From Marinifilum sp. (GTDB lineage: Bacteria; Bacteroidota; Bacteroidia; Bacteroidales; CG2-30-32-10), in contig DYDE01000005.1 of the NCBI GenBank assembly GCA_020718065.1, positions 1-64,000 of the forward strand: a stretch of 64,000 nt of DNA. The letters run 5' to 3'. Numbering within the stretch: position 1 is the first letter of the stretch; every line of letters starts with the position of its first letter. Below the pieces are notes generated by a model. It worked only from the letters and a program-made list of their open reading frames with translations, ran no database searches and was not told the origin of the DNA. This document shows, one piece after another, positions 18,079 through 60,507 of this stretch. The translations under genes and the position numbers were made by a program.

Positions 18079-18082
18079 TTAT

Positions 18083-19061: not shown

Positions 19062-19681
19062 CTTTCTAAAATTAAATATGAACCTTTATGACCTGGAACA
19101 GATCCTTTTACTATAATAATATTTTTTTCGGGTATTATCTTTAATACTTGCAAATTAATAATTTTAATCCTATCAGTACCCATTCTTCCGGCCATACGTA
19201 ATCCTTTAAATACTCTTGATGGGTATGAAGATGCGCCAACAGAACCAGGAGCTCTCAATCTGTTATGTTGTCCATGAGTTTTTTCTCCAACACCTTGAAA
19301 ATTGTGGCGACGAACTACTCCCTGAAACCCTTTACCTTTTGAAATTCCAACTACATCGATATATTCACCTTCAATAAAAACATCAGTTTTAAGAATATCG
19401 CCATAGTTTTTTCTATGATCAGCTTCAAACCTTGTAAATTCTGCTACCATTTTCTTTGGCGTTGTATTAGCTTTTGCAAAATGGCCTTTTAAGGCAGCAG
19501 TAGTATGCTTTTCTTTCTTTTCATCGAAAGAAAGCTGGATGGCTTCGTAGCCATCTTTCTCAATTGTTCTAACTTGTGTTACAACACAAGGACCAGCTTC
19601 TATCACTGTGCATGGTAAATTTTTCCCAGAGGCATCATAAATACTGGTCATTCCGATTTTTTTTCCAATAAGTCCTGACAT
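19052..19681 (-). CDS. rplC: 50S ribosomal protein L3
   Basis: [15 protein letters not shown]...[13 protein letters not shown]. The 3' end overlaps the rplD start by 10 nt. Confidence 0.96.
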
Positions 19682-19722
19682 TTCTTTTTTATTTTATTAT
19701 TAATAGGTATAGATTAAACAAA

Positions 19723-20028
19723 TCAAACTTTGATTTCTACTTCTACCCCACTTGGCAATTCAAGCTTCATTAATGCTTCAACAGTTTTTGCAGTTGAACT
19801 GTAAATATCAATTAACCTTTTATAGGAGCATAATTGAAATTGCTCTCTTGATTTTTTGTTTACAAATGTTGATCTTAAAACAGTAAAAATTTTCTTGTTT
19901 GTTGGTAATGGAATTGGTCCACTTACAACAGCTCCTGTTGATTTAACAGTTTTTACAATTTTTTCTGCTGACTTATCAACTAAATTGTAATCGTAAGATT
20001 TTAATTTAATTCTAATTTTTTGGTTCAC
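19723..20028 (-). CDS. rpsJ: 30S ribosomal protein S10
   Basis: [21 protein letters not shown]. Confidence 0.97.
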
Positions 20029-20059
20029 GATATCACAATTTTGAAATTAAATAATATTT

Positions 20060-22165
20060 TTAATATTGAACTTTTATTCCTTTTATTTTATATAATACTT
20101 CTTCTGTTACATTTTTAGGTGCTTCAGTATAATGCGAAAATTCCATATTTGATGTTGCTCTACCTGAAGAAGACGATCTTAAATCAGTAACATATCCAAA
20201 CATTTCTGATAAAGGTACTTTTGCTTTGATAATTTGAGTATTCATTTTTGCAGTTACACCCTCTAAATGTCCTCTTCTTCTGTTAACATCTCCAATAACC
20301 TCACCCATATATTCTTCTGGTGTTTGAATTTCCAATTTCATAATTGGTTCCAATAAAATTGGTTTTGCCTTCTTACATGCTTCTTTAAAAGCAAGACGTG
20401 CAGCTATTTCAAAAGATAATGAGTCAGAATCAACCGAATGAAAAGAACCGTCAATTAATCTAACTTTCAGTCCTACCATTGGATAACCTGCTAAAACTCC
20501 ATTTTGTATTGCTAATTTAAATCCTTTTTCTACAGATGGGATAAATTCTCTAGGAATATTACCGCCTTTTACCTCATCTAAAAATTGCAAACCAGCTTTA
20601 CCCTCATCATTTGGAGATACAATAACAACTATATCTGCAAATTTACCTCTTCCTCCACTTTGCTTTTTATATACTTCTCTATGTTGAATTGTAGTAGTAA
20701 TTGCTTCATTGTAAGAAACCTGAGGAGCTCCCTGATTGCACTCAACGTTAAATTCACGTCTTAATCTATCAACTAATATCTCAAGATGTAATTCCCCCAT
20801 TCCACTAATAATAGTTTGCCCAGAATCTTCATCAGTTCTTACTTTAAAAGTAGGATCTTCTTCTGATAATTTAATTAAAGCATTTATTAATTTATCAATA
20901 TCAGCTTGTGTTTTAGGTTCTATAGCAACTGAAATTACAGGTTCAGGAAAAGACATTGACTCTAAAACAATTGGATGTTTTTCATCACACAAAGTATCGC
21001 CAGTTCTTATATCTTTAAAACCAATAGCAGCACCTATATCGCCAGCTTCTATTTCTTCTAATGGGTTTTGTTTGTTTGCATGCATTTGCACTATTCGTGA
21101 AATGCGTTCTTTTTTATTAGTATTTGAATTTAAAACATATGATCCAGATTTCAATGTTCCAGAATAAACTCTAAAAAAAGCTATTCTTCCAACATATGGA
21201 TCAGTTGCTATTTTAAATGCTAAAGCAGCAAAATGTTCATTTGATAATGCATTTCTTTCTTCTTCCTTTTCAGTATAAGGATTAATACCTTTTATTGCAG
21301 GAACATCTAATGGATTTGGCAAAAATTCAATGATTACATCTAATAATTTCTGTACTCCTTTATTTTTAAAGGATGCACCACATAAGACAGGCGTAATACG
21401 CATTTCTAATGTAGCTTTTCTTATTGCATATATTATTTCTTCTTCGGAGATAGAAGAAGGATCGTTCATGAATTTTGTTAACAGTTCATCACTTTCTTCA
21501 GCAGTACCTTCAATAAGTTTTGTCCTATATTCATTAACAACCTCTATAAGATCATTTGGAACTGGAATCTCGAAGAACTCCATTCCTGCAGAAGTCATAT
21601 CCCATTCATACGCTTTATTGGCAATAAGATCAACAACACCTCTGAAATTTTCTTCGTAACCAATAGGAATTTGAATAGGAATAGGATTAGCTCCTAATCT
21701 TTGTTTAATTTGAGTAACAACACTAAAAAAATCAGCACCAGCTCTATCCATTTTGTTAATAAAACAAATACGAGGTACACCATATTTATCAGCTTGCCTC
21801 CAAACAGTTTCAGATTGAGGCTCTACACCACCAACAGCACAAAATAATGCCACTGCACCATCAAGTACACGTAAAGATCTTTCAACTTCAACTGTGAAAT
21901 CGACATGACCTGGTGTATCTATTATATTTATTTTATATTGTTCGTTTTTATATTTCCAGTAAGTAGTAGTAGCTGCAGAAGTAATTGTAATACCTCTTTC
22001 CTGCTCTTGAATCATCCAATCCATTGTAGCAGTGCCATCATGTACTTCCCCAATTTTATAATTAATACCAGTATAATATAATATACGCTCAGTAGTTGTG
22101 GTTTTACCCGCATCTATATGAGCCATAATGCCTATATTTCTTGTATATTTTAAATCTCTTGACAT
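20060..22165 (-). CDS. fusA: Elongation factor G
   Basis: 701 aa. GTPase motifs [27 protein letters not shown]. Confidence 0.98.
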
Positions 22166-22192
22166 TAATATTATATTATTTCAAATTATTAA

Positions 22193-22660
22193 TTAAAATC
22201 TAAAATGCGAGAATGCTTTGTTAGCATCAGCCATTCTATGAGTATCTTCTTTTCTTTTAAAAGCAGCACCTTCTTCTTTAGCAGCAGCTAAAATTTCACC
22301 AGCTAACTTTTGACTCATTGATTTTTCGTGACGTTTACGTGCAAAATTTATAAGTGCCTTTATTCCTATTGAGCTTTTACGTTCTGGTCTAATTTCTGAA
22401 GGTATTTGAAAAGTTGCTCCTCCAATTCTTCTACTTCTAACTTCAACAGAAGGTGTAACATTTACAAGTGCTTTTTTCCACAATTCAAGACCATTCTCAC
22501 CTGATTTTTCGGCAACAGTATCAATAGCATCATAAAAAATTTTATATGAAGCATTTTTCTTACCTCTTTCCATCAAGTTGTTTACAAACTTCGTAACCAA
22601 AACATCATTAAATTTTGGGTCTGGAAGAATTATTCTTTTTTTTGGTGTTGATTTCCTCAT
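22193..22660 (-). CDS. rpsG: 30S ribosomal protein S7
   Basis: 155-aa uS7 homolog ([15 protein letters not shown]...). Confidence 0.97.
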
Positions 22661-22707
22661 TGTTTAAATGATTTAAAACCTTATATATTATTATAAAATA
22701 TTATTAA

Positions 22708-23097
22708 TTATTTAGCTGGAGTTTTTGCTTTTGGTTTTTTAGTTCCATATTTCGATCTCCTTTGATTTCTACCATCAACTCCTGAAGTATCAAGAGCCCC
22801 ACGAATTATATGATACCTAACCCCTGGTAAATCTTTTACTCTGCCTCCTCTAATCATAACTATAGAGTGTTCTTGGAGATTATGACCTTCACCTGGTATA
22901 TAAGTATTGACTTCTTTTCCATTTGTTAAACGAACTCTTGCTACTTTTCTCATAGCAGAATTTGGTTTTTTTGGAGTTGTTGTATAAACCCTAACACATA
23001 CCCCACGTCTTTGTGGACAAGAATCTAATGCTGGTGATTTACTTTTGTCTGTTAATTTTGTACGCCCTTTGCGAACCAATTGTTGTATAGTAGGCAT
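22708..23097 (-). CDS. rpsL: 30S ribosomal protein S12
   Basis: [12 protein letters not shown]...[11 protein letters not shown]. Confidence 0.98.
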
Positions 23098-33797: not shown

Positions 33798-34961
33798 TTA
33801 TTGACAAGGTAATGGAGTAGTATTTACTTTAATTACCTTATTGGTAGAAGCAGTCCCAAACCAATTAACAGTTTCCTGCACCATTTTCCATTGAAAATTA
33901 TAAGTGCCACTTGTAGTAGGAGCTTTTACAGTGAAATAGAAAGTAACAGATTCACCTGGTTCAACAGGACTTTTTGGCAAATTAACTCGATGAATACCCC
34001 AAATTAAATTATTTTCTGGATTTTGTGATCCAAGTTTAAATGGAGTACTTCCTCCGGATATCCAGGTGGAGGTGCCAGTGTTTTTAAAAGTCATAAAAAC
34101 TGTAAAATCCTGACCTGGATCCACCTTTGATGGTGCACTCATTCTTACAAAAGAAGCATTATTAACTAAAGTTGGTGCTGTAACTGTAATTACTTTATTT
34201 TCTGTGTGTTCCCCAAACCATTCAATTAATTCCTGTACCATTCTCCACTGAAAGTTGTAGATGCCAGGAGTTGAAGGTGCTATACATTCAAAATTAAAAG
34301 TCGCATTTTCCCCTGGATTTATGGGCGAAGATTGAAGTTCATCTCTTATTGTTGCCCATAGATTCCAAGGATCATTCAGGGTGCCGAGTCTGTGAGGATT
34401 ACTTCCACCGGTAACCCAAGGTTTTGTGCCGTTGTTCTTAAATATAACTTTTGCCTGAAATGTTTGTCCTGCCACAACAGAAGATGGGGCTGTCAACGAA
34501 ATAAATTGGGCATTGTTTTGCTGAGGAACAACTGTAATTACCTTGTTTGCAGATGACTCTCCAAACCATTCAATTAATTCCTGCACCATTCTCCATTTAA
34601 AATTATAGTTACCAGGAGTTGAAGGTGCCACACAGTTGAATGTAAATGTTACACTCTGCCCCTGAATAATGGGTGTCGATGAAAGATCCACCCTGATTGT
34701 TGCCCACAAATTCCAGGGATCATTTTCTGTACCAAGTCTGTAAGGATTTGCACCACTACTTGTCCATGCTGTTGTCCCCGTATTCATAAATGTAATTACT
34801 GTCTGAAAAGTTTCACCAACAACTACCTGGCTGGGTACTGCTATTGAAACAAAATGTGAATTGTTTTGTGCACCCACAAATGCAGTGCTTAAACCTAAAA
34901 AAACTGAGAGCAAAAGAAGTCGCTTCAGCAAAATTGAAAATCTTGTTTTTAATGTTTTCAT
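33798..34961 (-). CDS. Secreted protein with three tandem ~115-aa Ig-like repeats (NBR1/FW-like)
   Basis: Signal peptide. Three copies of F.N.G...W...G.NP.RLGT.NDPWNLWATIR...APSTPG.YNF.WRMVQE.IEWFGE. The family name is from memory of the NBR1 Ig-like domain pattern. Confidence 0.55.
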   Translation of the reverse strand: MKTLKTRFSILLKRLLLLSVFLGLSTAFVGAQNNSHFVSIAVPSQVVVGETFQTVITFMNTGTTAWTSSGANPYRLGTENDPWNLWATIRVDLSSTPIIQGQSVTFTFNCVAPSTPGNYNFKWRMVQELIEWFGESSANKVITVVPQQNNAQFISLTAPSSVVAGQTFQAKVIFKNNGTKPWVTGGSNPHRLGTLNDPWNLWATIRDELQSSPINPGENATFNFECIAPSTPGIYNFQWRMVQELIEWFGEHTENKVITVTAPTLVNNASFVRMSAPSKVDPGQDFTVFMTFKNTGTSTWISGGSTPFKLGSQNPENNLIWGIHRVNLPKSPVEPGESVTFYFTVKAPTTSGTYNFQWKMVQETVNWFGTASTNKVIKVNTTPLPCQ

Positions 34962-34981: not shown

Positions 34982-35014
34982 TGCTTACTCTTTAATGGGT
35001 TTTCGGCATCCCCC
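34982..35014 (-). promoter_or_regulatory. Conserved 5'-leader motif (copy 1), 20 nt upstream of the ATG
   Basis: Sense strand GGGGATGCCGAAAACCCATTAAAGAGTAAGCA. About 25/28 aligned positions are identical to the element upstream of the peptide gene at 41328-41360. Confidence 0.5.
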
Positions 35015-35483
35015 TTTTTTAATTTATAATAAAATTGAAATGATAAAAATTATTAAAAAAACTAAATTAAATGAAGAGACAAATAGATACTTTATATAAT
35101 TTTATTTAAACTTTAAAAACACAAATAATTAACATGGCAATTGTTTTTGGCACTATACAGTAAACATCAACAATAAACACAAAACCCGATACAGCAAAAA
35201 TGCAGCTTATTTTAAATAATGGATTAGTAAAACCGGGATTTGATATCAACCCTCTTCGGCTATGAGGCTGTGGCCCTTTGGGTTGAGGCTGTGCCACCTC
35301 TCCACTATCCTGTTGACTTACCTGCACTCTTATTTTATTTTAAACCACAAGCTGGCGCTCTTTTTTAGTGATCGTTGCACAACTTCAGAATCAATTTTTT
35401 TTCTAGAAAGAGAACCCTGCTATGCGGCATGAAAATTATTAACAACATTGGTGGACAGCCAAAACCGAACGTAGTTAGAAAAA

Positions 35484-37507: not shown

Positions 37508-38584
37508 ATGTTAAGTGAAATTTATAATAAAAGGACAAATTTTTGGATTTACCAAATTCTGGGGTGGATTGGATTTTATATAATGGTAACAACGAGAGAA
37601 ACCTTACAGATAATACAGGATAAGTCGAATTTAAGCAACATAATTGAGGAATCTCTTTCATACATAATTTATGTCCTTTTGGGATTTTTATTTACTATAT
37701 TACTCAGATACATTTATCAATGGTTCTATCGAAAACAAAATCAAATAATCAAAACTACTGGTTTTATTATACTTATGACCTTTTTAGTTACCTTAATTCA
37801 TACAGTTTTGGTTAATTATATTTATTCTTTACTAATAAAACCGATTAACACACCTAATTTAATATTTCTTTTAATTCATATTATTTGGAATTTGCCTGTT
37901 TATTTTGGGTGGAGCATTCTATATTTCGGTATTAAATACTGGAATCAATCGGTTTTTGAGAAGGAAAAATCAGAAAAAGCAATTTTTTTAGCTCAAACCG
38001 CACAATTACAAATGCTGCGATATCAATTGAATCCACACTTTCTGTTCAATTCACTAAATTCTATTACCGCATTGATCGATGAAGATAAAAAGACTTCAAA
38101 GGATATGATAGCTGAACTGGCGGATTTTTTGCGTTACTCATTAATTAGCAAGAACTATACTGATATTCCTTTGGAAGAAGAACTTAAGGCAATTAGACTT
38201 TATTTTTCGATAGAAAAGAAAAGATTTGAAGAAAAGCTGGAAGTTGAATATGAGATCGCTCCTGAAGCAGAAAAGTTTCCAGTGTTAAGCTTGCTGTTGA
38301 ATCCAATTGTCGAAAATGCGATCAAATATGGTATGCTCACCAGCGTTTTGCCATTGAGAATTGCCATCATTGCTAAGATTGTAAATCAACATCTGATATT
38401 GCAAGTTACAAATACCGGTAAATGGATTGACTCTGTCAAAAATGATAATAATAATGGGACCAGAACTGGTTTAGAAAACATTAAATTACGACTTCTTAAC
38501 GCCTATTCTGACAAAGCATCATTTCATATTGGACAGATTGATGATAAAGTAATTGCTACAATTGAAATACATGGAAAATCATAA
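37508..38584 (+). CDS. Sensor histidine kinase, LytS/YehU type (multi-TM input domain)
   Basis: ~5 N-terminal TM helices. LQMLRYQLNPHFLFNSLNSI (His_kinase region) and N-box LLLNPIVENAIKYG. Confidence 0.85.
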   Translation: MLSEIYNKRTNFWIYQILGWIGFYIMVTTRETLQIIQDKSNLSNIIEESLSYIIYVLLGFLFTILLRYIYQWFYRKQNQIIKTTGFIILMTFLVTLIHTVLVNYIYSLLIKPINTPNLIFLLIHIIWNLPVYFGWSILYFGIKYWNQSVFEKEKSEKAIFLAQTAQLQMLRYQLNPHFLFNSLNSITALIDEDKKTSKDMIAELADFLRYSLISKNYTDIPLEEELKAIRLYFSIEKKRFEEKLEVEYEIAPEAEKFPVLSLLLNPIVENAIKYGMLTSVLPLRIAIIAKIVNQHLILQVTNTGKWIDSVKNDNNNGTRTGLENIKLRLLNAYSDKASFHIGQIDDKVIATIEIHGKS

Positions 38585-39299
38585 ATATACTGCCATCATA
38601 GTTGATGATGAGCGCTTAGCAAGAAACGCCTTAAAAACATTATTGGAAGAAATTGATGAAATTGAATTGACAGGAGAGGCTGATAGTGTGTCTAATGCCA
38701 TATCATTGATTGCTAAAGTGAAGCCAGATATTATCTTTCTTGACATTCAAATGCCTGGAGAATCTGGTTTTGATCTGATTGAAAAAATTTCAACAAATAT
38801 TAAAATCATATTTGTTACTGCTTTTGATGAATTTGCATTGAGGGCATTTGAAGTTAACGCCATTGATTACTTGTTGAAGCCTGTTTCTGTTATACGTTTA
38901 AAAACCAGTATAGCCAGGCTATTCGAAGAAAATAGTATAGATGAAACAGCAAAAAAAAAGTTAGTTGCAGGCGATCGCTTATTTCTTCTCTTTAATAACA
39001 ATTATCTTTTTCTTAAAATTGAAAATATTTTACACATTAGTTCTTCTGGAGATTATTCAGAGCTTCATCTGATTGATGGGAAAAAGGGTTTAACAAATAA
39101 ATCAATGCAAGAATGGGAAGCAAGGCTTCCTATAAATACCTTCTGCCGTATACACCGCTGTACTATCATTAATATGGATTACGTAGTAAAGGTGGATGAA
39201 TGGTTTAATAATGCTTTTCGAATTCATATGAAGGGAATAGAAGAACCTTTTATAATGAGCAGGCGATTTTCATCAGTAATCCGAAACAGGTTCAATTGA
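38571..39299 (+). CDS. LytTR-family response regulator
   Basis: REC domain (IIVDDERLARN...DIIFLDIQMPGESGFDL). C-terminal LytTR domain (ILHISSSGDYSELHL...FCRIHRCTIINMDYV). The start at 38571 overlaps the kinase stop. Confidence 0.88.
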   Translation: MENHKYTAIIVDDERLARNALKTLLEEIDEIELTGEADSVSNAISLIAKVKPDIIFLDIQMPGESGFDLIEKISTNIKIIFVTAFDEFALRAFEVNAIDYLLKPVSVIRLKTSIARLFEENSIDETAKKKLVAGDRLFLLFNNNYLFLKIENILHISSSGDYSELHLIDGKKGLTNKSMQEWEARLPINTFCRIHRCTIINMDYVVKVDEWFNNAFRIHMKGIEEPFIMSRRFSSVIRNRFN

Positions 39300-39376: not shown

Positions 39377-40867
39377 TTAAATAATATCATATATAAACGC
39401 AGGTGCTTTATTGCATCTGGGATCAGGAAAATCCCAATTTTCATCTCCATACACTTTTAACACATCAGCCCAACATTTGTTAGGATATTTATTACAACAT
39501 TCATCAAGTATTTCGCAATTTTTACATGCACTTTCTTCCCGAAAATCATCTTTTGTTAAATTGACCCATTTTAATGAAGCTGGAGAATTCCATACTTCCT
39601 CAATAGAATTGTTAAGAATATTTCCAATAATAAATTTTTGTTTCCAATACATTTGCTCGCAAATAGTAACATTGCCATCAGGAAGAACATACATATGCGA
39701 ACGATTTGCCGAACAAACAGCTCCCGGAAATGATTTACTTCCTTTTTCAGCTGTAAAATAACCTCGGTCCAAATGAGATTTATCTATATCAATCCTTAAT
39801 TTTTGCAATTTATTAAGTTCATCTATATTCTTAAGAGCTTCTTCACGTTCTTGTTTTTGAAGTTTTATCTTTTCAAAATCATTAGTACTATATAGGGATT
39901 TAAATGCAATTCTAACTTGCCAGCATTTAATTTTTTTTAATGATGATAGATAGTTGAGCATTTCCAATAATTCATTTTTATCAGCATTTAATCTAGTTAA
40001 AATAGAAATAACATGATATGAGATTCCATATTCATCCATCGTTTCTAATGTTTTCTTCATATTTGCAGCATAGTTTCCAGAGACACCAAGAATTTCATAC
40101 AGCTTTTGTGGAGAAAGAGAATCAAAGGAAAATTGAAAAGTTAGATTTGTAAATTGTGTCAATTTAATGATATCCTCTTTCTTAATAGGGATTTTGGTCG
40201 AAATAAATATTTTTTCATATCCATGTTTGTAAAGCTCTTTTAAAAGATCGTACCATCTGTCATAGAGGAAAAACTCTCCACCACCGATTTGTATTTCTTT
40301 TAATTTTATTTTTTTTGATTCTACAATTAAATCTATAATACGATCAAAAGGAATGGTGCACGAAAAATCATTATTTTTGTCAGCATAGCAATAAATACAA
40401 TTTGTTACACAGCGATTGGTTACCATAATGGTTATGGAAGAAGGGCATTTCATTAACCTGGCCGATTCAAAATCTAATTCTGAATAAGTAAAATCTTCGG
40501 GAGTATAAGTATAGTTGATTTTAAGCTGTTTTTTGTATTTAATGACGATCTGTTTAGGGAACCTAAAGGTAGCTCCATTATACTGCGTATATATGGTTTC
40601 TTTATTTTCGATAAAGGGATTAATAAGCGCAATAGTTTCTTTTTTATTTAAACTTAAAAATTCGGTTAAGTTCTCAACCGCCTTATCAATGGTTATAGGA
40701 TTAGAAAAAAAAGACAAGATCATTGCCTGGGCCGGATGAATAAAAGATAACCATTCTTTGTTTGAATTTTCACATTGCGATTCGGAATTAGCAATAATTA
40801 CACTTCTTTTAATATCATTTCTGAAGTTGTAGTCAGGATTAAGGATAAATTTTTCTGAGTTTGTCAT
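39377..40867 (-). CDS. Radical SAM/SPASM-domain peptide maturase with an N-terminal RRE-like domain
   Basis: CVTNCIYC is CX3CX2C. C-terminal auxiliary-cluster motifs are CSANRSHMYVLPDGNVTIC (CX12GX4C) and CKNCEILDECC (CX2CX5C). The ~130-aa N-terminal extension has a PqqD-like pattern (IHPAQAMILSFFSNPITIDKAVENLTEFL). Confidence 0.85.
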   Translation of the reverse strand: MTNSEKFILNPDYNFRNDIKRSVIIANSESQCENSNKEWLSFIHPAQAMILSFFSNPITIDKAVENLTEFLSLNKKETIALINPFIENKETIYTQYNGATFRFPKQIVIKYKKQLKINYTYTPEDFTYSELDFESARLMKCPSSITIMVTNRCVTNCIYCYADKNNDFSCTIPFDRIIDLIVESKKIKLKEIQIGGGEFFLYDRWYDLLKELYKHGYEKIFISTKIPIKKEDIIKLTQFTNLTFQFSFDSLSPQKLYEILGVSGNYAANMKKTLETMDEYGISYHVISILTRLNADKNELLEMLNYLSSLKKIKCWQVRIAFKSLYSTNDFEKIKLQKQEREEALKNIDELNKLQKLRIDIDKSHLDRGYFTAEKGSKSFPGAVCSANRSHMYVLPDGNVTICEQMYWKQKFIIGNILNNSIEEVWNSPASLKWVNLTKDDFREESACKNCEILDECCNKYPNKCWADVLKVYGDENWDFPDPRCNKAPAFIYDII

Positions 40868-40922: not shown

Positions 40923-40961
40923 GCAATTCTTCTACCATGTTTTTCTAAGTAGAAGAATTGC
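40923..40961 (-). terminator. Intercistronic 13-bp hairpin between the precursor and maturase genes (candidate leaky terminator or mRNA stabiliser)
   Basis: gcaattcttctac (40923-40935) pairs with gtagaagaattgc (40949-40961). There is no strong U-tract on the minus strand. Confidence 0.5.
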
Positions 40962-41041: not shown

Positions 41042-41305
41042 TTAATACCACTGAATAATTCTATGATTTCGGGTACAATCACCTCCACCAGCACCCCACA
41101 TTCGTCCAGAACACACATTTCCTCCGCAAAAATTATTACTCAAGCCTCCGTCACAAGCTTGATGGGATATACATTCAGCTCCAGTGGTGCAGGTTCCAAC
41201 ATTATCACCGCACTCACCACCATTAATTTCATTTAATTGTTTGGCATTCATTAATTCGCCTAGATTTAACTTTTCATTAGTTAATTCACTTAATTTTTTT
41301 TTCAT
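41042..41305 (-). CDS. RiPP precursor peptide: double-glycine leader plus Cys/Gly-rich core
   Basis: The leader is MKKKLSELTNEKLNLGELMNAKQLNEINGG (30 aa). The core ECGDNVGTCTTGAECISHQACDGGLSNNFCGGNVCSGRMWGAGGGDCTRNHRIIQWY (57 aa) has 7 Cys and 12 Gly. The gene lies directly upstream of, and co-oriented with, the rSAM/SPASM gene. Confidence 0.75.
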   Translation of the reverse strand: MKKKLSELTNEKLNLGELMNAKQLNEINGGECGDNVGTCTTGAECISHQACDGGLSNNFCGGNVCSGRMWGAGGGDCTRNHRIIQWY

Positions 41306-41327: not shown

Positions 41328-41360
41328 TGCTTACTCTTTATAGGATTTTCAGCTTTCTCC
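41328..41360 (-). promoter_or_regulatory. Conserved 5'-leader motif (copy 2), 22 nt upstream of the ATG
   Basis: Sense strand GGAGAAAGCTGAAAATCCTATAAAGAGTAAGCA. See copy 1 at 34982-35014. Confidence 0.5.
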
Positions 41361-41416
41361 TATTGTTATTGCGCGCAAACAATATCTTTATAAATTCCAT
41401 AGCGTTTTTATTTTTA

Positions 41417-43009: not shown

Positions 43010-43074
43010 TGAGAATAAATAATTATTGGATTGAGGAACCCTCTGTGGAAACAGGGGGTTTTTTATTGGCCTCT

Positions 43075-43440
43075 CCACTTCGGAAGAACGGGGGATGGAA
43101 CGCTGATGACGCTGATTGATCTGATTTTCGTTGATATTTTCTCGCAAAGGCGCTAAGACGCATATCTTTAGAGTTGGAAGAACGGAGGATGGAACGTTGA
43201 TGACGCTGATTTATTATGATTATTATGATTTTGCCACCAAAGCTCAAAAACACCAAATTTCTCCAAACTTTATCTATAATTAAGAAATTGAACGCTGATG
43301 ACGCTGATTGAGCTGATTTTCGCTGATATTTTCTCGCAAAGGCGCTAAGACGCATATCTTTAGAGTCGGAAAAACGGAGGATGGAACGCTAATGACACCG
43401 ATTTATTATGATTATTATGATTTTGCAACCAAAGCACAGA
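43075..43440 (+). repeat. Interspersed-repeat cluster, same family and orientation as 30091-30425
   Basis: ggaacg.tgatgacgctgat modules at ~43097, 43190, 43291 and 43386. Around 43190-43270 the element reproduces ~85 nt of the 120-bp unit (..tgattttgccaccaaagc.caaaaacaccaaatttctccaaa). Confidence 0.8.
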
Positions 43441-43696
43441 AGCAAGATATCTAAACTAAAGTTTTAATGAAGGCATGAGATTGACCTCTCCCCTAGCCCT
43501 TATCCAATTGGAGAGGGGAATTGCATTTGTGGTGATTATTGAGTTTCTAGAAATAAAGAAAGAGATAGATGCTATCGTTTGCAGACGATAAATATACCTT
43601 GAAAGATTTTGTTTTTATAGACCTCAATATTACGGATGCTTTGGAATGAATCGGAGATTTATCGGAGATGAATTTGACTGGAATTGGAACAATTAA

Positions 43697-43725
43697 AAAA
43701 CGACCTCTGAAAAGGAGGTCGTTTT
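43697..43725. terminator. Bidirectional hairpin terminator
   Basis: aaaacgacctc-tgaaaag-gaggtcgtttt with A-run and T-run flanks, ~185 nt downstream of the GWxTD gene stop. Confidence 0.5.
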
Positions 43726-43908
43726 CTATAATATTCAAAAGTTATACTTTACAATGCTTTGGTAATCCAAATTAATAAAGCCACTTAGGCGCAAAGACAT
43801 AAAGAGTTCACAAAGAAAGAAACAAAAAAATCGTATATTCTTGGTGTATTGTGGTCAATAAGTACTCTACAATTTCTTATATCATAACTTATTTAAATAA
43901 GGTTAAAA

Positions 43909-46721: not shown

Positions 46722-46761
46722 GGTTGACAAGTAGACAAGTTAACTTGTCTACTTGTCAACC
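46722..46761. repeat. Perfect 40-bp palindrome built from four GACAAGT/ACTTGTC half-sites
   Basis: ggTTGACAAGTAGACAAGTT|AACTTGTCTACTTGTCAAcc. It begins 3 nt after the permease stop and ends 47 nt before a -7 box. Confidence 0.85.
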
Positions 46762-46807
46762 CACAAAGGAAGTATCCATTTTCAACTATCTAATTAATAA
46801 TAAAAAT

Positions 46808-46815
46808 TACTTTTG
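46808..46815 (+). promoter_or_regulatory. Candidate -7 box (TACTTTTG) for the membrane LytTR gene
   Basis: Matches TAnnTTTG, 10 nt upstream of the ATG at 46826, which implies a very short leader. Confidence 0.4.
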
Positions 46816-46825
46816 GTTTGAAATT

Positions 46826-47692
46826 ATGAAAATAAAGGAATATTTTAAACAGCCTTACCCTGCAAATGATAATGCATGGAAAAATATTGCATTTATAAGT
46901 GTTTTTATACCTGTTTTCCTTATTATGTTCCAACCTTTTGGAATGAGTTTATATGAAAATAAATACAAAGCATTAAAAATACTGGGTTATGGCGGTGTTA
47001 CATTTGTAGTTGCAGCAATCAATCAAATACTTCTACAGTATATTTTTAAAAAGACATTTTCAGAAAGTAATTGGACAATAGGAAAAAACATGCTCGGTAT
47101 GTTATATACTATTTTTACTATCGGTCTTGGCAATTATATTTATACCAGTCTGGTCTTTTCATTTCTTCAATTTGATATATCACAAATTGTTATCTTTCAA
47201 ATAGTAACATTGATGGTTGCTGTAATTCCTGTAGGTTTAATCACAACTTTGCGCTATAATACTTTATTAGCAAAAAATCTTAAAATAGCAAGAGAGATAA
47301 ACATACAATTACCAAATCAAAAATTGGTACCAGACATACGAATGATCCGTTTTTCTTCTGAAAATGAAAAAGATATTATTGAAATAGCTGCTAATGATTT
47401 TCTATATATTGAATCAAATGGTAATTATTTAGAAATAAATTACATTGAAGAAGGAAAACTAAAAACATCCTCAGTTCGTAGTACCCTAAAAAGAGCTGAA
47501 GCATCTATGTCTGTTTCCACATCTATTGTGAAATGTCATCGGGCATTTTATGTAAATATCAATAAAATTAAAAAGGTTAATGGAAATTCCCAAGGTTATA
47601 AACTTTGTATAGAACATACTGAAAAAGAAATTCCGGTTGCCAGAAACTATTCCAAAACTATTAAGGAATTATTGAGCCCATCTTCAAAATAA
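46826..47692 (+). CDS. Membrane-anchored LytTR-domain DNA-binding protein (one-component)
   Basis: ~4-5 TM helices then a LytTR domain (FLYIESNGNYLEINYIEEGK...IVKCHRAFYVNINKIKKV). There is no receiver domain. The track's TTG start at 46724 lies inside the palindrome, so the ATG at 46826 is preferred. Confidence 0.75.
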   Translation: MKIKEYFKQPYPANDNAWKNIAFISVFIPVFLIMFQPFGMSLYENKYKALKILGYGGVTFVVAAINQILLQYIFKKTFSESNWTIGKNMLGMLYTIFTIGLGNYIYTSLVFSFLQFDISQIVIFQIVTLMVAVIPVGLITTLRYNTLLAKNLKIAREINIQLPNQKLVPDIRMIRFSSENEKDIIEIAANDFLYIESNGNYLEINYIEEGKLKTSSVRSTLKRAEASMSVSTSIVKCHRAFYVNINKIKKVNGNSQGYKLCIEHTEKEIPVARNYSKTIKELLSPSSK

Positions 47693-49115: not shown

Positions 49116-50372
49116 ATGAAGAAAGTAACTTTTATCGTAATCTTTTTTATATCACTTCTGTTTTGTCAAACCTCTATTGGTCAGAGACCAATTCATCGCA
49201 AGACATATCTTAATACTAATAAGGAAGTATTAAATCACAATCAACAAGAAGATTTTAAACTATTATTGAACGAAAACTCGCAAATTATTCTTTTGGGTGA
49301 AATGCACGGTTATAAAGAACCACAGAAAATAGATTTTGCTTTGTTAAAATATCTCAACAAAACAAAGGGATTCAGATATTACCTTGCTGAATTGGATTAT
49401 TTTGAAACATATTACTTCAATAAATTTTTAGAAAAAGGAAATGATAGCTTGTTGATGATCGTATTTTCAGTTTGGGATGAGCAAATTTCGCAATGGGCAA
49501 ACAAAGATTTTTTAGGAAAAATAAAACAAATAAGAGAACTCAATCAATCACTGCCTGATGACAAAAAGATTCAATTTCTTGGAGTTGATCAAATTCAGAG
49601 CAGTATTATATTAAAATCATATATGATTGAATTATTGAAAGAAGTCAGCTATAAAGAAGGTACAAATCCAGTTTTAGATACCTTGCTTTACCTTGCAAGA
49701 TTTCCAAATAAAAATCTTAAACAAATAAAGGCTTTTGCTCCTATTTTACAATCAGACTTTAACAATAATAGCGTTTTTTATAAAAATTTATTTGTGGAAC
49801 GTTATTTTGACTTTGCATACATGATTAAAAATCTATTAGTAAAGTCTGTCAATAGAGACAGCATTATTAATGAAAACTTCAAATTGTTAATGAATCAAAA
49901 TCATCTTGAGAATGAAAAATTTTATGGTTTGTGGGGTTATTACCATATCAATCAGAATGAAATAAATGGAGAGATGCCTTTGGCTCAACTTTTAAAAAAC
50001 ACATATACTGTAAGTTCAATTGCTATTGTAACCAGCAAAAGTGAGAATATGTGTCCTTCAACTTCATTACCAAGGTTTATAAGAGTGGAAGGAAAAAAAT
50101 TCGGAAGTACAAAAGCAGTAAATAATGATGGTTTTTTGTTTTCAACAAAAGGAATCAATAATCTGAAAAAAGTTAGTCAATCCAATACCTCCACCCTATT
50201 CAAACTTAATGGACTAAATTCTCCATATAATAAAGGTTTACTTCTATGCAAAACGAAAGGAAAATTTGGAGGAGGAATTATACCAACAAACAAAAAGGCT
50301 TCAACTATAGATTACTTTCAATACATCATATTGGTGAGAGATTCTAGAGCGGTAGATTCGTTTGAAGAATAA
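49116..50372 (+). CDS. Secreted protein resembling the erythromycin esterase / ChaN / Tiki-TraB-PrgY superfamily
   Basis: Signal peptide. IILLGEMHGYKEPQ resembles the GE.HG motif of that superfamily. The assignment rests on motif memory only. Confidence 0.4.
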   Translation: MKKVTFIVIFFISLLFCQTSIGQRPIHRKTYLNTNKEVLNHNQQEDFKLLLNENSQIILLGEMHGYKEPQKIDFALLKYLNKTKGFRYYLAELDYFETYYFNKFLEKGNDSLLMIVFSVWDEQISQWANKDFLGKIKQIRELNQSLPDDKKIQFLGVDQIQSSIILKSYMIELLKEVSYKEGTNPVLDTLLYLARFPNKNLKQIKAFAPILQSDFNNNSVFYKNLFVERYFDFAYMIKNLLVKSVNRDSIINENFKLLMNQNHLENEKFYGLWGYYHINQNEINGEMPLAQLLKNTYTVSSIAIVTSKSENMCPSTSLPRFIRVEGKKFGSTKAVNNDGFLFSTKGINNLKKVSQSNTSTLFKLNGLNSPYNKGLLLCKTKGKFGGGIIPTNKKASTIDYFQYIILVRDSRAVDSFEE

Positions 50373-50377: not shown

Positions 50378-51139
50378 ATGTATAAAATGAGTGTTCGCTT
50401 CTTATACATCAAAGCTGAAATTAAGAAAGTCAAGTGGTTAAATATATTCATCTTTTATCTGCTTGCTTTTCTAATTGCAGCACCCTTTAATTCTGGATTT
50501 TTAGTGGAAGCATACCGAAACATAACTAAAAACTATTTAATTAGTAGTTGGGGTTATTTGCCTGCAGGTTTTGGGACTTTAGTTGGAACTTTAATTGTTT
50601 TATGGCTTGACAAAAAACATGAGAAAACTATTACTTTACTGGGAAATGCTCCATTCAAAAATATTACCATTGCAATAATTCCATTGATTGTGTTTACTAT
50701 AATCGGTTTAAAAAACGAATTACTTAAAAACGAACACTATTATGCGTTTATTTTTATGGTAATTAATTTAGCTTATGCTCTTGCAGAAGAGATCGGTTGG
50801 CGAGGTTATTTACAAGATGCTTTAAGACCAATTTCTTCAAACTTTCGTTATATATTTATAGGAATATTTTGGTGGGTATGGCATTTTCGTTTTTGTTCCA
50901 CCTTTGAAATAACACTTTTTCCTGTAATATGCATAACAAGTGCTTTTATATTAGGGAAATTTGTTGAACAAACAAAATCGTCCTTTACTGTTGCAGGTTT
51001 ACATTCTTTGATAATAATACTGACGAACACAGGAAAATTAAGTATTTCAAAAATAACTGGTGCATTTATAACAATTCTTATTTGGTTTGCTATTGGATAT
51101 TTTTTCAAATTGAACGAAAATAAAAAACCTGCTAAATAA
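50378..51139 (+). CDS. CPBP-family intramembrane metalloprotease (CAAX protease / Abi)
   Basis: Multi-TM protein. Motif 1 is AEEIGWRGYLQ (EExxxR). FWWVWHF and GLHSLIII provide the conserved His residues. Confidence 0.75.
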   Translation: MYKMSVRFLYIKAEIKKVKWLNIFIFYLLAFLIAAPFNSGFLVEAYRNITKNYLISSWGYLPAGFGTLVGTLIVLWLDKKHEKTITLLGNAPFKNITIAIIPLIVFTIIGLKNELLKNEHYYAFIFMVINLAYALAEEIGWRGYLQDALRPISSNFRYIFIGIFWWVWHFRFCSTFEITLFPVICITSAFILGKFVEQTKSSFTVAGLHSLIIILTNTGKLSISKITGAFITILIWFAIGYFFKLNENKKPAK

Positions 51140-52012: not shown

Positions 52013-53050
52013 TTATTTTATCTCCCAAGTATCTCCACTGTTAAGCAAATCATCCACAGATTTAATAGTAGCAGATTTCTTAGCATTTAAAATTTGTTCT
52101 TCAACCATATCGTCATAAGTAGGAAACATAGCAGAACGGATAACACCAAGTGCAATAGGGAATGCAGGAGGTTGCATTTTAGCAAGCATCAAGTGTATAC
52201 CAGGATCTTGAGAATATTGGTCATGAACCAAAATGTCATTTTCAGTGATCCCATTTTCCCCAATTTTAACAATCTCTAATCCAGCTGTAGCCAATCTAAT
52301 ACCTTTTTCTTTATTTTTACCAAAAAGCATTGGTTCTCCATTTTTCAGATGTAACTGATGATCGTCTCTTAAATCTTTAGAAGTAATCAACTCATGAGTT
52401 TTATCAGCAAAAATCACACAATTTTCGAGGATTTCAATAACAGAAGTCCCATCATGACGAGCTGCTTCAAACATGACATCTGTCATCATTTTAATATTGT
52501 TGTCAACTACTCTAGCAAAGAAAGTTCCCTGAGCACCCAAAACAAGTTCACCTGGGTTAAAAGGATGTTCAATAGTACCCTGAGGAGAAGTTTTAGTTAT
52601 ACTACCCATTGGGGTAGTTGGGGAATATTGACCTTTTGTTAACCCATAAATCTGGTTATTAAATAACAATATATTTAAGTCAACATTTCTACGAATAATG
52701 TGAATAAAGTGGTTACCACCAATTGCCATTGAGTCGCCATCACCAGTAGCAATCCAAACACTAAGATGTGGATTAGCTATTTTAACACCGGTAGCAATAG
52801 CGTTTGCTCTACCATGGATTCCATGAAAACCATAGGTGTTAACATAATAAGGGAAACGAGAAGAACAACCAATACCAGAAACAACACAAAAATTTTCTTT
52901 TTTGTAGCCTATTTTAGGAAAAACATTGGCAACAGAACTAAGAATAGCATGACCACCACAACCGGGGCACCATTTTACCATTTGATCGCTAACAAAATCT
53001 TCTTTGGTTAACGGAACTCTTGACCTTTCAACGGTTAAATTTTCATCCAT
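52013..53050 (-). CDS. korB: 2-oxoglutarate:ferredoxin oxidoreductase, beta (TPP-binding) subunit
   Basis: WCPGCGGHAIL and GDGDSMAIGGNHFIH, the TPP-binding motif. Confidence 0.88.
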   Translation of the reverse strand: MDENLTVERSRVPLTKEDFVSDQMVKWCPGCGGHAILSSVANVFPKIGYKKENFCVVSGIGCSSRFPYYVNTYGFHGIHGRANAIATGVKIANPHLSVWIATGDGDSMAIGGNHFIHIIRRNVDLNILLFNNQIYGLTKGQYSPTTPMGSITKTSPQGTIEHPFNPGELVLGAQGTFFARVVDNNIKMMTDVMFEAARHDGTSVIEILENCVIFADKTHELITSKDLRDDHQLHLKNGEPMLFGKNKEKGIRLATAGLEIVKIGENGITENDILVHDQYSQDPGIHLMLAKMQPPAFPIALGVIRSAMFPTYDDMVEEQILNAKKSATIKSVDDLLNSGDTWEIK

Positions 53051-53053
53051 TAC

Positions 53054-54904
53054 TTATTTCTCCTTTAAAATTTGGTTAAACTTTTCTTTTAATTCTGAAA
53101 CCACAAATGGCAATCCCTGAACTTTATTATATTGTGTGAATTGGTATTGTGGGAATTTCATACGTAAATAATTTACCAATTGACCACTATTCAATTCACA
53201 TACGATGATTTTCTTGAATCCTTTAAAGATCTTATCCGTATTTTTTGGAAAGGGCATTATATAGTTAAAGTGAGTCTGGCTGATTTTCTTGCCTTGTTTT
53301 TGCAATTCATCAACTGCAGAGAAGATAGCACCATGAGTACTTCCCCAACCAACAACCAATAAATCTCCTTCTTTTTCTCCAAATAATTCCTGATTAGGAA
53401 TAAAGTCAGCGATTTTTTCAACCTTCTCCGCTCTTAAATCTGTCATGATCTGGTGGTTCATTGGATCGGTACAAACATTACCGACAATGTTTTCTTTTTC
53501 TAAACCACCAATGCGATGACGTAATCCTTCAGTTCCCGGCAAAGCCCATTGTCTTACCAATGTTTTATCGTTTCTGCGGTAAGGTTTAAAATTTTTGTCA
53601 TTTGCTTCAGCAATAGGAGGATTGATAGCAGGTAAATCTTTTACTTTAGGTATTTTAAATAATTCAGATCCAAAACCAAGACAACCTTCAGTTAATAAAA
53701 TAACAGGTGTCATATGTTCCATAGATAATTTTGCAGCCTCATAAGCATAATAGAAACAATTAACGGAAGTTGATGCAGCAATAACTATAACAGGAGCTTC
53801 ACCATTTCTTCCAAATAATGCCTGCATTAAATCAGATTGTTCAGATTTAGTTGGCAAACCGGTAGATGGGCCACCACGTTGTACGTTAACAATAACCAAA
53901 GGTAATTCAGTGATAACAGCAAGACCTATAGCTTCACTTTTCAGAGAAAGACCAGGACCAGATGTTGTGGTTACAGCAAGAGAACCTGTAAAACTAGCAC
54001 CAATAGCAGAACAAATACCAGCAATTTCATCTTCCGCTTGAAAAACTTTTGCACCTAATGATTTATGTTTGGCAAGTTCCATTAAAATTTCGGTAGCAGG
54101 AGTGATAGGATAAGAACCAAGAAATATAGGTCTTCCAGAACGTTCGGATGCAGCGAGTAAACCCCATGCAACTGCTAAATTTCCTGTAATATTTCTGTAT
54201 GTTCCTTTTTCCATCTTGGCAGCAGAAACATTAAAAGTAGTTTTAATAGCTTCTAAAGTTTCAGCATAATTATAACCTGCCTGAAGAACAGTTTTGTTAA
54301 CATTTATAAATACGGGTTTCTTTTTAAATTTCACTTCAAAAAATTTGAAAGTTTGTTCAAGCGATCTGTTAAAAAGAAAATTTATAATACCAAGCGCAAA
54401 CATGTTTTTACTTTTGTCTGCTGTTTTTGGGTCAACATTTAATTCAGTTAAAGCACCTTTTGTCATAGATGTTATAGGAGCAGCAATCAGGTTATAATTA
54501 TCCAGACTACCATCTGTAAGTGGATTGGATTTGTAACCTGCTTTTTCGTTTGCTTTGTCTTCAAAAACATCTGCATCAACAATAATATTGGCGCCTGGTT
54601 TAGCCCATTTAAGGTTTGATTTGAGGGAAGCAGGATTCATTGCGACAAGGACATCACACAAATCGCCAGGAGTATGAATTTTTATTTTACCTAAATGCAC
54701 CTGAAAACCAGATACACCTGCAATGGTATTATGAGGTGCTCTAATTTCGGCTGGATAATCGGGAAATGTAGCAATATCATTTCCTAATATTGCAGCAGCA
54801 TCAGAAAAAAGTGTGCCAGTAAGTTGCATTCCGTCACCAGAATCACCAACAAATTTAACCACAACCTCATCTTTTTCTACAACATTATTTTTTTTCTTTG
54901 TCAT
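53054..54904 (-). CDS. korA: 2-oxoglutarate:ferredoxin oxidoreductase, alpha subunit (fused gamma/alpha type)
   Basis: 616 aa, full-length similarity pattern to KorA (GYPITPATEIL...). Lies immediately upstream of korB. Confidence 0.88.
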   Translation of the reverse strand: MTKKKNNVVEKDEVVVKFVGDSGDGMQLTGTLFSDAAAILGNDIATFPDYPAEIRAPHNTIAGVSGFQVHLGKIKIHTPGDLCDVLVAMNPASLKSNLKWAKPGANIIVDADVFEDKANEKAGYKSNPLTDGSLDNYNLIAAPITSMTKGALTELNVDPKTADKSKNMFALGIINFLFNRSLEQTFKFFEVKFKKKPVFINVNKTVLQAGYNYAETLEAIKTTFNVSAAKMEKGTYRNITGNLAVAWGLLAASERSGRPIFLGSYPITPATEILMELAKHKSLGAKVFQAEDEIAGICSAIGASFTGSLAVTTTSGPGLSLKSEAIGLAVITELPLVIVNVQRGGPSTGLPTKSEQSDLMQALFGRNGEAPVIVIAASTSVNCFYYAYEAAKLSMEHMTPVILLTEGCLGFGSELFKIPKVKDLPAINPPIAEANDKNFKPYRRNDKTLVRQWALPGTEGLRHRIGGLEKENIVGNVCTDPMNHQIMTDLRAEKVEKIADFIPNQELFGEKEGDLLVVGWGSTHGAIFSAVDELQKQGKKISQTHFNYIMPFPKNTDKIFKGFKKIIVCELNSGQLVNYLRMKFPQYQFTQYNKVQGLPFVVSELKEKFNQILKEK

Positions 54905-59724: not shown

Positions 59725-59784
59725 CATTATAAAATGGGGTAAGACGAAAAACCATAAAACAGAGTAGTCGAATTAATAAATATA

Positions 59785-60507
59785 TTGTATATGAAACCAG
59801 CAATTGTTATATTATTTGCTTTATTGGTAATTGTAGCAGGTATGTTTTTGCTTGCTAAATCTAAAAAAGAAGAACTCGGCAAGTTCTTTAAATTTATATC
59901 TTATACTGTGGTGATTTCGGGATTTGTAATAATTTTTATTGTAATTCAAATAAGTATTATCAGAACTCTGGGAGAATGCAGGAATAAGTTTATGTATTTT
60001 GGAATGCACAAGGGGTTTAACAAAGAAATGCCCTGTCCTATGCCTGATCATAAAATGATAATGATGAATGAAGATATTATGAACGATGGTAATAATATAA
60101 TTAAGAAAATTGAAATAGTTGGTGATGATAAATGTGGTATGATGAAAATAGGAAGTGGAAACGGATGTGGAATGAGTACTAATTGTATAATGAAAATGGG
60201 AAATGATAAAGGTTGTGGTTCGGGAACATCTTGTCAATTGAAATGCTTATCACCAGAAGAAAGGGCAATGGTAATTACTAAACGTATTTCTGATAAAGTT
60301 ACTTTAACTACAGAACAATTTACAAAAGTACAAGCATTGTTAATTGAAATTTCAAAGAAAAAAGAAATTTTAATGAAAGAGGGTGGCGAAGATCCGATAA
60401 AAATAGAAGGTCTAATGAAGAAACATGAACAAGAGCGTATTGATGCTATTAAAAAATTGTTAACACCAGCCCAGATAAAACTATTGCCTGAGGATTTACC
60501 AATGTAA
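59785..60507 (+). CDS. Membrane-anchored Met/Cys-rich protein with C-terminal LTXXQ (Spy/CpxP-like) motifs
   Basis: Two TM helices. MPCPMPDHKMIMMNEDIM and CGMMKIGSGNGCGMSTNCIMKMGNDKGCGSGTSCQLKC. Then LTTEQFTKVQ and LTPAQIKLL. Confidence 0.55.
   Translation: MYMKPAIVILFALLVIVAGMFLLAKSKKEELGKFFKFISYTVVISGFVIIFIVIQISIIRTLGECRNKFMYFGMHKGFNKEMPCPMPDHKMIMMNEDIMNDGNNIIKKIEIVGDDKCGMMKIGSGNGCGMSTNCIMKMGNDKGCGSGTSCQLKCLSPEERAMVITKRISDKVTLTTEQFTKVQALLIEISKKKEILMKEGGEDPIKIEGLMKKHEQERIDAIKKLLTPAQIKLLPEDLPM

Follow-up and report, generated by a model that had tools for sequence, protein, structure and literature searches.

In streptosactin, the S-C-alpha rings Cys25-Ser28 and Cys31-Gly34 stand side by side and are unnested (PMC8172795), and in freyrasin (PapA/PapB) a single radical S-adenosylmethionine (rSAM)/SPASM enzyme forms six Cys-Asp C-beta thioethers across repeated Cys modules (PMC8326336). 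For Bacteroidales, a survey reports many loci with a single rSAM gene (PMC10352776), and an in-silico 'sactipeptide-like' cluster of five genes has been described in Bacteroides dorei DSM 17855 and Bacteroides sp. 9_1_42FAA (Walsh et al. 2015, PMC4573289). That cluster encodes a double-glycine (GG)-leader peptide, an rSAM enzyme with only a weak match to TIGR03962, an ABC exporter, HlyD and a C39 peptidase (PMC4573289). Here we describe a precursor peptide gene and its neighbouring rSAM/SPASM maturase gene in a 64,000-nucleotide stretch of Marinifilum sp. DNA (GenBank assembly GCA_020718065.1, contig DYDE01000005.1, positions 1 to 64,000; hereafter the window). The peptide with its rSAM enzyme is most likely an rSAM/SPASM-modified GG-leader RiPP (a peptide made by ribosomes and modified after translation), which is a known kind and not a new kind of system. 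The literature that we searched yielded in-silico surveys only and no experimental study of any member of this family, nor was a chemically characterised rSAM-modified peptide from Bacteroidales apparent in it. The features on which the argument turns are the following.

41042..41305, minus strand: precursor peptide gene, 87 aa plus stop (ATG 41305-41303, stop 41044-41042)
41216..41305, minus strand: double-glycine-type leader MKKKLSELTNEKLNLGELMNAKQLNEINGG, codons 1-30, predicted cleavage after G30
41045..41215, minus strand: core, codons 31-87, 57 aa with 12 Gly and 7 Cys (core positions 2, 9, 15, 21, 30, 35, 47)
39377..40867, minus strand: radical SAM/SPASM peptide maturase, 496 aa, with a RiPP recognition element (RRE)-like N-terminal domain (about aa 1-110) followed by rSAM and SPASM domains

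The precursor gene and its relatives

The precursor open reading frame (ORF) translates as MKKKLSELTNEKLNLGELMNAKQLNEINGG (leader) followed by ECGDNVGTCTTGAECISHQACDGGLSNNFCGGNVCSGRMWGAGGGDCTRNHRIIQWY (core). An initial annotation of this DNA had proposed a 30-aa GG leader and a 57-aa core with 12 Gly and seven Cys at the positions given above, and all of these particulars were borne out. The same is true of the SPASM enzyme that it placed beside the peptide: the ORF running from 40867 to 39377 scores above the cutoffs of the Radical_SAM and SPASM models. This 496-aa enzyme ORF lies downstream of the precursor on the same strand, across an intergenic gap of 174 nt. Measured against the long ORFs of the window (1.0% Cys, 6.8% Gly), the composition of the core is extreme, with probabilities of 2e-6 for at least seven Cys in 57 residues and 4e-4 for at least 12 Gly. 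Among the 86 six-frame window ORFs of at least 60 aa, the precursor alone holds a 57-aa stretch with at least seven Cys, and its GGN-rich stretch is the more notable because the G+C content of the window is 31.7%. The composition profile of the window showed no island-like anomaly. Coding on the plus strand at 41042-41305 was rejected, since that reading is full of stops and closed by them.

A single-sequence homology search with the precursor returned only two relatives, which lie in tandem before a 496-aa rSAM enzyme 77% identical to that of the window in a groundwater metagenome-assembled genome (MAG). The family was therefore built through the enzyme, a precursor profile and a HMMER pass over 1.84 billion representative proteins. 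We recovered 26 distinct precursors with a leader of the window type, and wherever a locus reaches far enough its rSAM enzyme is 66-77% identical to the window enzyme. The HMMER pass gave only 23 clusters at E <= 1e-3, which makes this leader subfamily a rare one; a metagenome scan with the window rSAM gave only two loci. Judged by these relatives, the precursor ORF is a genuine gene, because independent assemblies have homologous small ORFs that share its leader and stand immediately upstream of the equivalent rSAM gene. The pairing of precursor and rSAM/SPASM gene is kept across more than 50 loci. Other neighbours vary within the close clade (relatives' loci are numbered L001 onwards): L004 has a sigma-54 two-component system and a MacB/FtsX permease, L087 an extracytoplasmic function (ECF) sigma factor, and the window a LytS/LytTR pair. 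Because these neighbours differ between loci, the conserved unit is just the precursor or precursors plus the rSAM gene, and we infer that the window locus is a minimal two-gene RiPP cassette.

The initial annotation had proposed conservation of the GG site among homologues as a check, and the site is indeed invariant, with Gly at -1 and -2 in 26/26. The surrounding leader positions are nearly as constrained: Leu at -13 and Met or Leu at -12 (26/26 each), Leu or Met at -7 (26/26), Ile, Val or Leu at -4 (25/26) and Glu at -8 (22/26). The window leader itself has Ile at -4, Leu at -7, Gln at -8 and Met at -12. These positions are the classical double-glycine signature. A leader hidden Markov model (HMM) scored at least 47 bits solely on ORFs beside rSAMs 66-77% identical to the window enzyme, and at most 12 bits at loci whose rSAM is no more than 47% identical. 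Because leader scores track the identity class of the rSAM in this way, the comparison points to co-evolution of the leader with the enzyme and its recognition domain. A search of the window with the same HMM for a second precursor found none; only 41042..41305 matches, at 57.4 bits.

Cysteine grammar, maturase and predicted chemistry

The 26 family cores are hypervariable, ranging from 27 to 72 aa and from 3 to 10 Cys, with an odd Cys count in 15/26. The window core was initially described as unusually long, which is true against characterised sacti- and ranthipeptides only; within its own family it is the sixth longest of 26. Conservation of the Cys positions had also been proposed as a check on the peptide, and the outcome was favourable, in that Cys is conserved as a local motif. 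Fixed alignment columns, shared with the nearest relatives, are few, being confined to core positions 2 and 9, the segment CSG[RQ][MI]xGAGGG(D)C and a tail C[WT][SR]N..I, where the window tail DCTRNHRIIQWY aligns with DCWSSNAIAY and PCWSNRAIEI. What the cores do have in common is a local grammar, C-[T/S]-x-G, in modules spaced by 4 or 6 residues. Thr follows Cys directly in 40% of cases (shuffle expectation about 10%), Gly stands at Cys+3 in 96/157 (61%; shuffle 28.7 +/- 4.5, or 18%), and the next Cys falls at +5 in 40% (shuffle about 11%). In the 13 closest cores, 4 or 6 residues separate successive Cys in 56/79 cases, and several family members are near-pure (C-T-x-G-x)n repeats. The Cys contexts of the window core are CGDN, CTTG, CISH, CDGG, CGGN, CSGR and CTRN, two of them with Gly and three with Asn at +3 (Gly or Asn at 5/7).

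This preference extends to 49 distant cores from the wider rSAM family, where Gly occupies Cys+3 in 26% of cases (about 9% expected), other offsets are flat, and CxxG occurs in 32/49 cores against 14.6 expected. Across the close and wider family together, Cys is the sole residue class common to all cores, with 2 to 10 per peptide.

The maturase exceeds the cutoffs of PF04055 (57.2 bits, cutoff 29.5), PF13186 (52.9, cutoff 21.5) and TIGR04085 (36.1, cutoff 27). Its CX3CX2C motif (C153/C157/C160) is common to 30 family members, in which seven SPASM Cys are also invariant (385, 403, 448, 451, 457, 465 and 485), with spacings C385-x12-G398-x4-C403 and C448-x2-C451-x5-C457. Seven SPASM Cys have likewise been reported for CteB, Tte1186 and QhpD (PMC10352776). 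An AlphaFold2 model (predicted local distance difference test score, pLDDT, 90.4) places an N-terminal domain of beta3-alpha3 RRE topology (E13-17, E22-26, E40-43, H45-54, H60-71, H75-85) before the rSAM barrel and the SPASM domain. The best Foldseek matches were SuiB (E = 1e-18), SkfB (2e-15) and CteB (4e-13), with PqqE also found, all at 14-16% identity, and a PDB sequence search returned the same set.

No NCBIfam family matched the maturase above its cutoff, and no curated family reached its cutoff in any of the 30 rSAM family members (0/30). The sactisynthase models fell far short of theirs (AlbA 34.5 against 850 bits, SkfB 35.3 against 300), as did PapB (NF047865, 27.5 against 340), and the StsB model matched weakly in 3/30 rSAM relatives. 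At E <= 1e-10 the enzyme has 628 relatives, and in species-representative genomes relatives occupy 161 places, almost all in Bacteroidales; hosts include Phocaeicola vulgatus, Bacteroides cellulosilyticus, Segatella copri and Parabacteroides distasonis. The wider family, 31-47% identical to the window rSAM, is widespread in Bacteroidales, and most of its loci have a small GG-leader, Cys-containing ORF directly upstream of the rSAM gene.

We give somewhat better than an even chance to the reading that the product is a multi-thioether RiPP, made through iterative Cys-dependent crosslinking by the rSAM enzyme. Iterative Cys-dependent crosslinking is the best supported chemistry because Cys is common to all cores, because the parity of its number is irrelevant and because the +3 position is constrained. 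By analogy with streptosactin, the rings are possibly unnested and run from Cys(i) to Gly(i+3). The initial annotation had taken the odd Cys count as an argument against a purely disulfide-bonded product; odd counts do recur in the family, and the argument is weak on its own. Its suggestion of thioether crosslinks made by the neighbouring SPASM enzyme is plausible. The proposed course of events also draws on the first and the last of three elements around the gene.

41328..41362, minus strand: DUF805b RNA motif (Rfam RF02914) in the 5' untranslated region (UTR), full-length match at 40.3 bits against a gathering threshold of 35.6, ending 22 nt before the ATG
41361..41384, minus strand: 24-nt imperfect palindrome of the type TATTGTT-TGCGCGCA-AACAATA (plus strand TATTGTTATTGCGCGCAAACAATA), immediately upstream of DUF805b
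40923..40961, minus strand: 13-14-bp hairpin (GCAAUUCUUCUAC / GUAGAAGAAUUGC) in the gap that separates the precursor gene from the maturase gene, 81 nt past the stop codon

Transcription would start upstream of the DUF805b element in the 5' UTR and yield a message encoding the 87-aa prepeptide. The conserved hairpin would stabilise or partly terminate the short precursor transcript, so that the peptide probably exceeds the enzyme, and read-through past it would allow expression of the rSAM enzyme. The RRE-like N-terminal domain, judging by the architecture of the enzyme and its co-variation with the leader, would bind the 30-aa leader. The [4Fe-4S] cluster held by CX3CX2C would then cleave S-adenosylmethionine, and the resulting 5'-deoxyadenosyl radical would take a hydrogen atom from the acceptor carbon, after which a core Cys thiolate would form a C-S thioether. 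For this step the thiolate may sit at an open iron site in a SPASM auxiliary cluster, as in CteB, where that site contacts a substrate Cys (PMC8326336). The reaction would repeat along the core at C-[T/S]-x-G modules. If we guess at a specific structure, small S-C-alpha rings would follow one another along the core without nesting, each from Cys(i) to residue(i+3), with Gly as the usual acceptor in the family; the Cys31-Gly34 ring of streptosactin is of this form. The leader signature and locus L005 (see below) suggest that a C39 peptidase-ABC exporter, encoded at another place in the genome, would cut the leader off behind G30; the 57-aa peptide would then be secreted, with a probable role in competition or signalling. 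A bolder version, which we regard as doubtful, is that the family is a new RiPP structural type, reaching about 70 aa and carrying up to 7-10 small rings made by one rSAM enzyme that reads iterated C-T-x-G-x modules, with the Gly C-alpha as acceptor (or with a crosslink type not seen before) and with DUF805b as a translational or stability control element.

A number of observations weigh against the thioether reading and its accompanying scheme. In the window core itself only 2/7 Cys have Gly at +3, and CxxG is absent from 17/49 distant cores. By sequence and fold, thioether formers (SkfB, CteB) and C-C formers (SuiB, PqqE) are about as remote from the maturase as each other, at 14-16% identity, and these relationships therefore do not decide between the two chemistries. 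Its best NCBIfam score is to the mycofactocin maturase MftC (57.6 against a 265-bit cutoff), with NirJ2 and PqqE next. The window peptide scores below the cutoff of the TIGR01847 leader HMM (11.3 against 15.7 bits, E = 0.48), and the leader model PF10439 does not match it. A tblastn search of the 64-kb window found no homologue of the C39 protease, ABC ATPase, HlyD or outer-membrane barrel; because the window has no exporter genes, leader removal and export are unaccounted for. On the side of the transcript, DUF805b is not specific to the cassette, because the motif also precedes unrelated genes, and the 3' hairpin has no clear U-tract.

One alternative is a RiPP on which the rSAM enzyme installs something other than thioethers, for example an epimerisation, or a C-C or C-O crosslink at an aromatic or aliphatic residue, while its Cys form disulfides or bind metal. 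SuiB, the best structural match, is a Lys-Trp C-C cyclase, the WgkB, PqqE and MftC models score the same as or above the sactisynthase models, and the window core contains W40, W56, Y57, F29 and two His. However, aromatic residues are unconserved in the 26 cores and in the wider family, whereas Cys is conserved together with its +1 and +3 context; odd Cys counts in more than half of the family and a SPASM domain with 7 Cys rather than 8 also argue against this alternative, which we consider rather unlikely. Conversion of the Cys side chains, whether to formylglycine or dehydroalanine (anSME-like) or to a thio-oxazole (SbtM-like), or a metal-binding product, seems less probable still. Weak matches do include an anSME structure (4k36) and the model for SbtM (TIGR04082), and the regularly spaced, Cys-Gly-rich repeats may be likened to metal-binding peptides, but the scores lie far under their cutoffs (SbtM 43.7 against 350 bits), partner enzymes such as MNIO or YcaO were not found near the cassette, and the setting of leader, RRE and C39-peptidase ABC exporter (PCAT) is that of secreted, cross-linked RiPPs.

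An intracellular product, serving as redox cofactor or carrier in the manner of mycofactocin or PQQ, would explain a window with neither protease nor exporter. The lack of PCAT, HlyD and outer-membrane barrel genes there, the absence of a nearby exporter from the L001 and L087 cassettes as well, and the rank of the mycofactocin maturase as top NCBIfam match all favour it. Yet that match is far under its cutoff, cofactor precursors are highly conserved whereas the family cores vary widely in length and Cys number, the leader keeps the full PCAT-type cleavage signature, and a PCAT is encoded in cis at L005 and at 51 wider-family loci, so we hold an intracellular product to be quite improbable. 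As for the most sceptical explanation, a spurious ORF or pseudogene remnant beside an unrelated rSAM gene, an AT-rich genome gives many short ORFs, and the peptide matched none of the Pfam and NCBIfam precursor families. It is nevertheless effectively refuted, and we assign it a negligible probability: homologues in more than 20 sequence clusters keep the start, the GG site and the position upstream of the rSAM gene, the leader codons differ from those of relatives by synonymous and nonsynonymous changes with the reading frame preserved, and the composition is highly non-random.

Transcript elements, export and neighbouring genes

The DUF805b motif at the precursor forms a 4-bp hairpin with a 12-nt loop and a probable loop-to-tail pseudoknot. 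It also stands upstream of the precursors in L001 (twice), L004, L084 and L087 and, at lower scores with our own covariance model, in L016, L064, L067 and L076/77. Covariation between the triplet xCC in the loop and GGx in the 3' tail (A-U, U-A, G-C and G-U, with GAC/GUC in one copy) suggests an H-type pseudoknot beyond the hairpin of the Rfam model. In L084 the motif (6175-6208) precedes a 45-aa ORF (6235-6372) that lies just upstream of the precursor. The window contains a second copy at 34982-35016 on the minus strand (42.6 bits with the Rfam model), which ends 21 nt before the ATG of ORF 33798-34961 (minus strand), encoding a 387-aa Ig-like/CARDB secreted protein. With our own model, a weak third motif of this kind appears at 59730-59774 on the plus strand, just before ORF 59785-60507 on the same strand. 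DUF805b looks like a general Bacteroidales 5'-leader element, placed about 20 nt upstream of start codons.

The 24-nt palindrome, a possible operator or 5' hairpin, is kept before both L001 precursors and not in other relatives. The intergenic region with the 3' hairpin has a predicted fold of -41 kcal/mol (z = -5.0). The same stem recurs behind both L001 precursors and behind those of L004 and L087; its loops vary and 3 of its pairs are compensatory, and the possibility that it is a dispersed genomic repeat was tested and rejected. We infer that this hairpin may be an attenuator or transcript stabiliser that sets the ratio of precursor to enzyme. Scans for sigma-70 promoters and intrinsic terminators gave counts near the shuffle expectation, Bacteroidota promoters being outside the scan models.

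Neighbour clustering across 82 family loci found a PCAT in 51/82 and HlyD in 29/82; in 51/82 the rSAM gene is followed directly by the gene of an outer-membrane barrel (CarboxypepD_reg/OMP_b-brl_3). Within the close clade, the sole carrier of a PCAT is L005 (Bacteroidales MAG Cfx3-06, contig JACABB010000021.1, 1720-9765), which encodes the exporter in cis (Peptidase_C39, 119.9 bits) together with four precursors and two rSAM enzymes. The four L005 cores have 4-9 Cys, two of them being near-perfect CxGGx repeats, and the paralogous maturases are 69% and 66% identical to that of the window. This makes L005 a better target than the window for work on export and on enzyme/substrate specificity.

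No pseudo-rSAM partner is present at the window cassette. The LytS/LytTR genes of the window are convergent with the maturase gene:

37508..39299, plus strand: LytS-type histidine kinase (37508-38584) and LytTR response regulator (38553-39299); PF06580, PF00072, PF04397

Whether these two genes are linked to the cassette is uncertain. They were rejected as a conserved partner, as they are not kept beside close-clade cassettes and LytTR ORFs occur in 5 of about 85 loci. Small stand-alone ORFs with a LytTR domain do lie directly upstream of precursors at a few distant loci (L008, L018, L078, L080). Farther along the window, a 322-aa protein with a C-terminal LytTR domain (46724-47692, plus strand) is the sole window neighbour that is also found near the cassette of a close relative (L004, 346-1233; 24% identity, E = 2e-16).

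A 418-aa protein (49116-50372, plus strand) is weakly similar to a ChaN/Tiki-superfamily protein (PF04187; 24-29% identity over about 130-160 aa, E = 1e-5), and a protein of that superfamily directly adjoins the rSAM gene in seven Prevotellaceae-type loci (L010-L012, L016 and others). The 418-aa ORF is followed by an Rce1-like CPBP intramembrane protease (50378-51139, plus strand), the pair lying about 8 kb from the precursor. CPBP intramembrane proteases are frequently associated with bacteriocin immunity. The two genes may form a remote module for processing or immunity, or they may be there by coincidence.

Elsewhere in the window, ORF sizes and order at about 5000-23000 (minus strand) suggest a block of ribosomal-protein genes. 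A 2-oxoacid:ferredoxin oxidoreductase pair (345 and 616 aa) lies at 52013-54904 on the minus strand; in L087, ORFs of 345 and 617 aa stand immediately downstream of the cassette, a likeness to the window pair by size alone. If these are the same genes, synteny would be partial and the gene order locally rearranged. At 43040-43900, a stretch of roughly 900 non-coding nt has a G+C content of 0.37-0.38, above its surroundings, and yielded no Rfam match and no tRNA. It contains a 158-nt direct repeat in two copies (43095-43252 and 43287-43444) that are 92% identical and spaced 192 nt apart. The 110-aa ORF at 43023-43355 (minus strand), which translates this repeat (MRLSAFARKYQRKS..., twice), is probably spurious.

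Significance and comparison with described systems

Bacteroidales dominate the gut and many anaerobic communities. The cassette described here is a solid genome-mining lead and holds no conceptual surprise; it anchors a coherent enzyme family and a rare leader subfamily whose substrate grammar, C-[T/S]-x-G, is clear. As a test case the window is the simplest possible, in that one precursor and one enzyme are enough for the chemistry to be read out by co-expression. Such a result would let hundreds of clusters be annotated, including those of Phocaeicola vulgatus, Segatella copri and Parabacteroides distasonis. Should the view of the family as a new structural type with DUF805b as a control element prove true, this orphan RNA motif would gain its first functional context.

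In enzyme architecture the window maturase resembles those of the SCIFF ranthipeptides (CteA/CteB, Tte1186), which have the same layout of RRE, rSAM and SPASM with 7 SPASM Cys. CteB is about 15% identical to the window maturase, however, and NCBIfam gave no SCIFF-type precursor match for the window peptide. The freyrasin module is CxxxD, whereas that of the window family is C-T-x-G-x. Tandem short Cys-Gly repeats beside an rSAM/SPASM enzyme are also the mark of the uncharacterised ACGX-repeat peptide/TIGR04340 rSAM system. TIGR04340 matched 4/30 rSAM family members, weakly and far under its cutoff, and the two systems differ in repeat period (4, against 5 or 7 in the window family) and in leader.

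Among sactipeptides, the closest parallel is streptosactin (GggA/GggB), a type II 'unnested' sactipeptide of streptococci whose rSAM/SPASM enzyme acts on Cys-x-x-Ser/Gly, just as Gly is enriched at Cys+3 in the window family. In both peptides Cys are spread along the core and not clustered at one end. The nested type I hairpin layout has its donor Cys in the N-terminal half and its acceptors in the C-terminal half, whereas the window Cys are evenly spread over core positions 2-47 of 57, so the window layout is closer to the unnested type II than to the nested type I. The likeness to GggB is drawn from the Cys-x-x-Gly pattern and not from the enzyme sequence. Streptosactin, moreover, is a two-ring 14-mer; it comes from a Firmicute, is controlled by Rgg/SHP and has another leader. 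The window peptide has a 57-aa core with 7 Cys and a GG leader, and comes from Bacteroidota.

Bacteroidales GG-leader peptides beside rSAM genes, as in the window, are the subject of the models TIGR04149 ('GG-Bacteroidales', with partners TIGR04148 and TIGR04150), PF10439 and PF14406. Among wider-family precursors, 11/50 match TIGR04149 (E <= 0.05) and 10/50 match PF10439. Membership of the window cassette in the GG-Bacteroidales system of Haft (TIGR04148/49/50) was nevertheless rejected: TIGR04148 matched 0/30 rSAMs, and the window peptide has no match to TIGR04149, PF10439 or PF14406. The B. dorei cluster has, by its published description rather than by sequence, the gene set of the wider rSAM family. 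The window clade differs from it in its leader (the leader HMM scores at most 12 bits on other clades), in its longer Cys/Gly-rich cores and in having no exporter nearby. Overall, the window clade is distinct among Bacteroidales rSAM clusters, with its own leader, long cores rich in C-[T/S]-x-G, a two-gene layout and no curated model.

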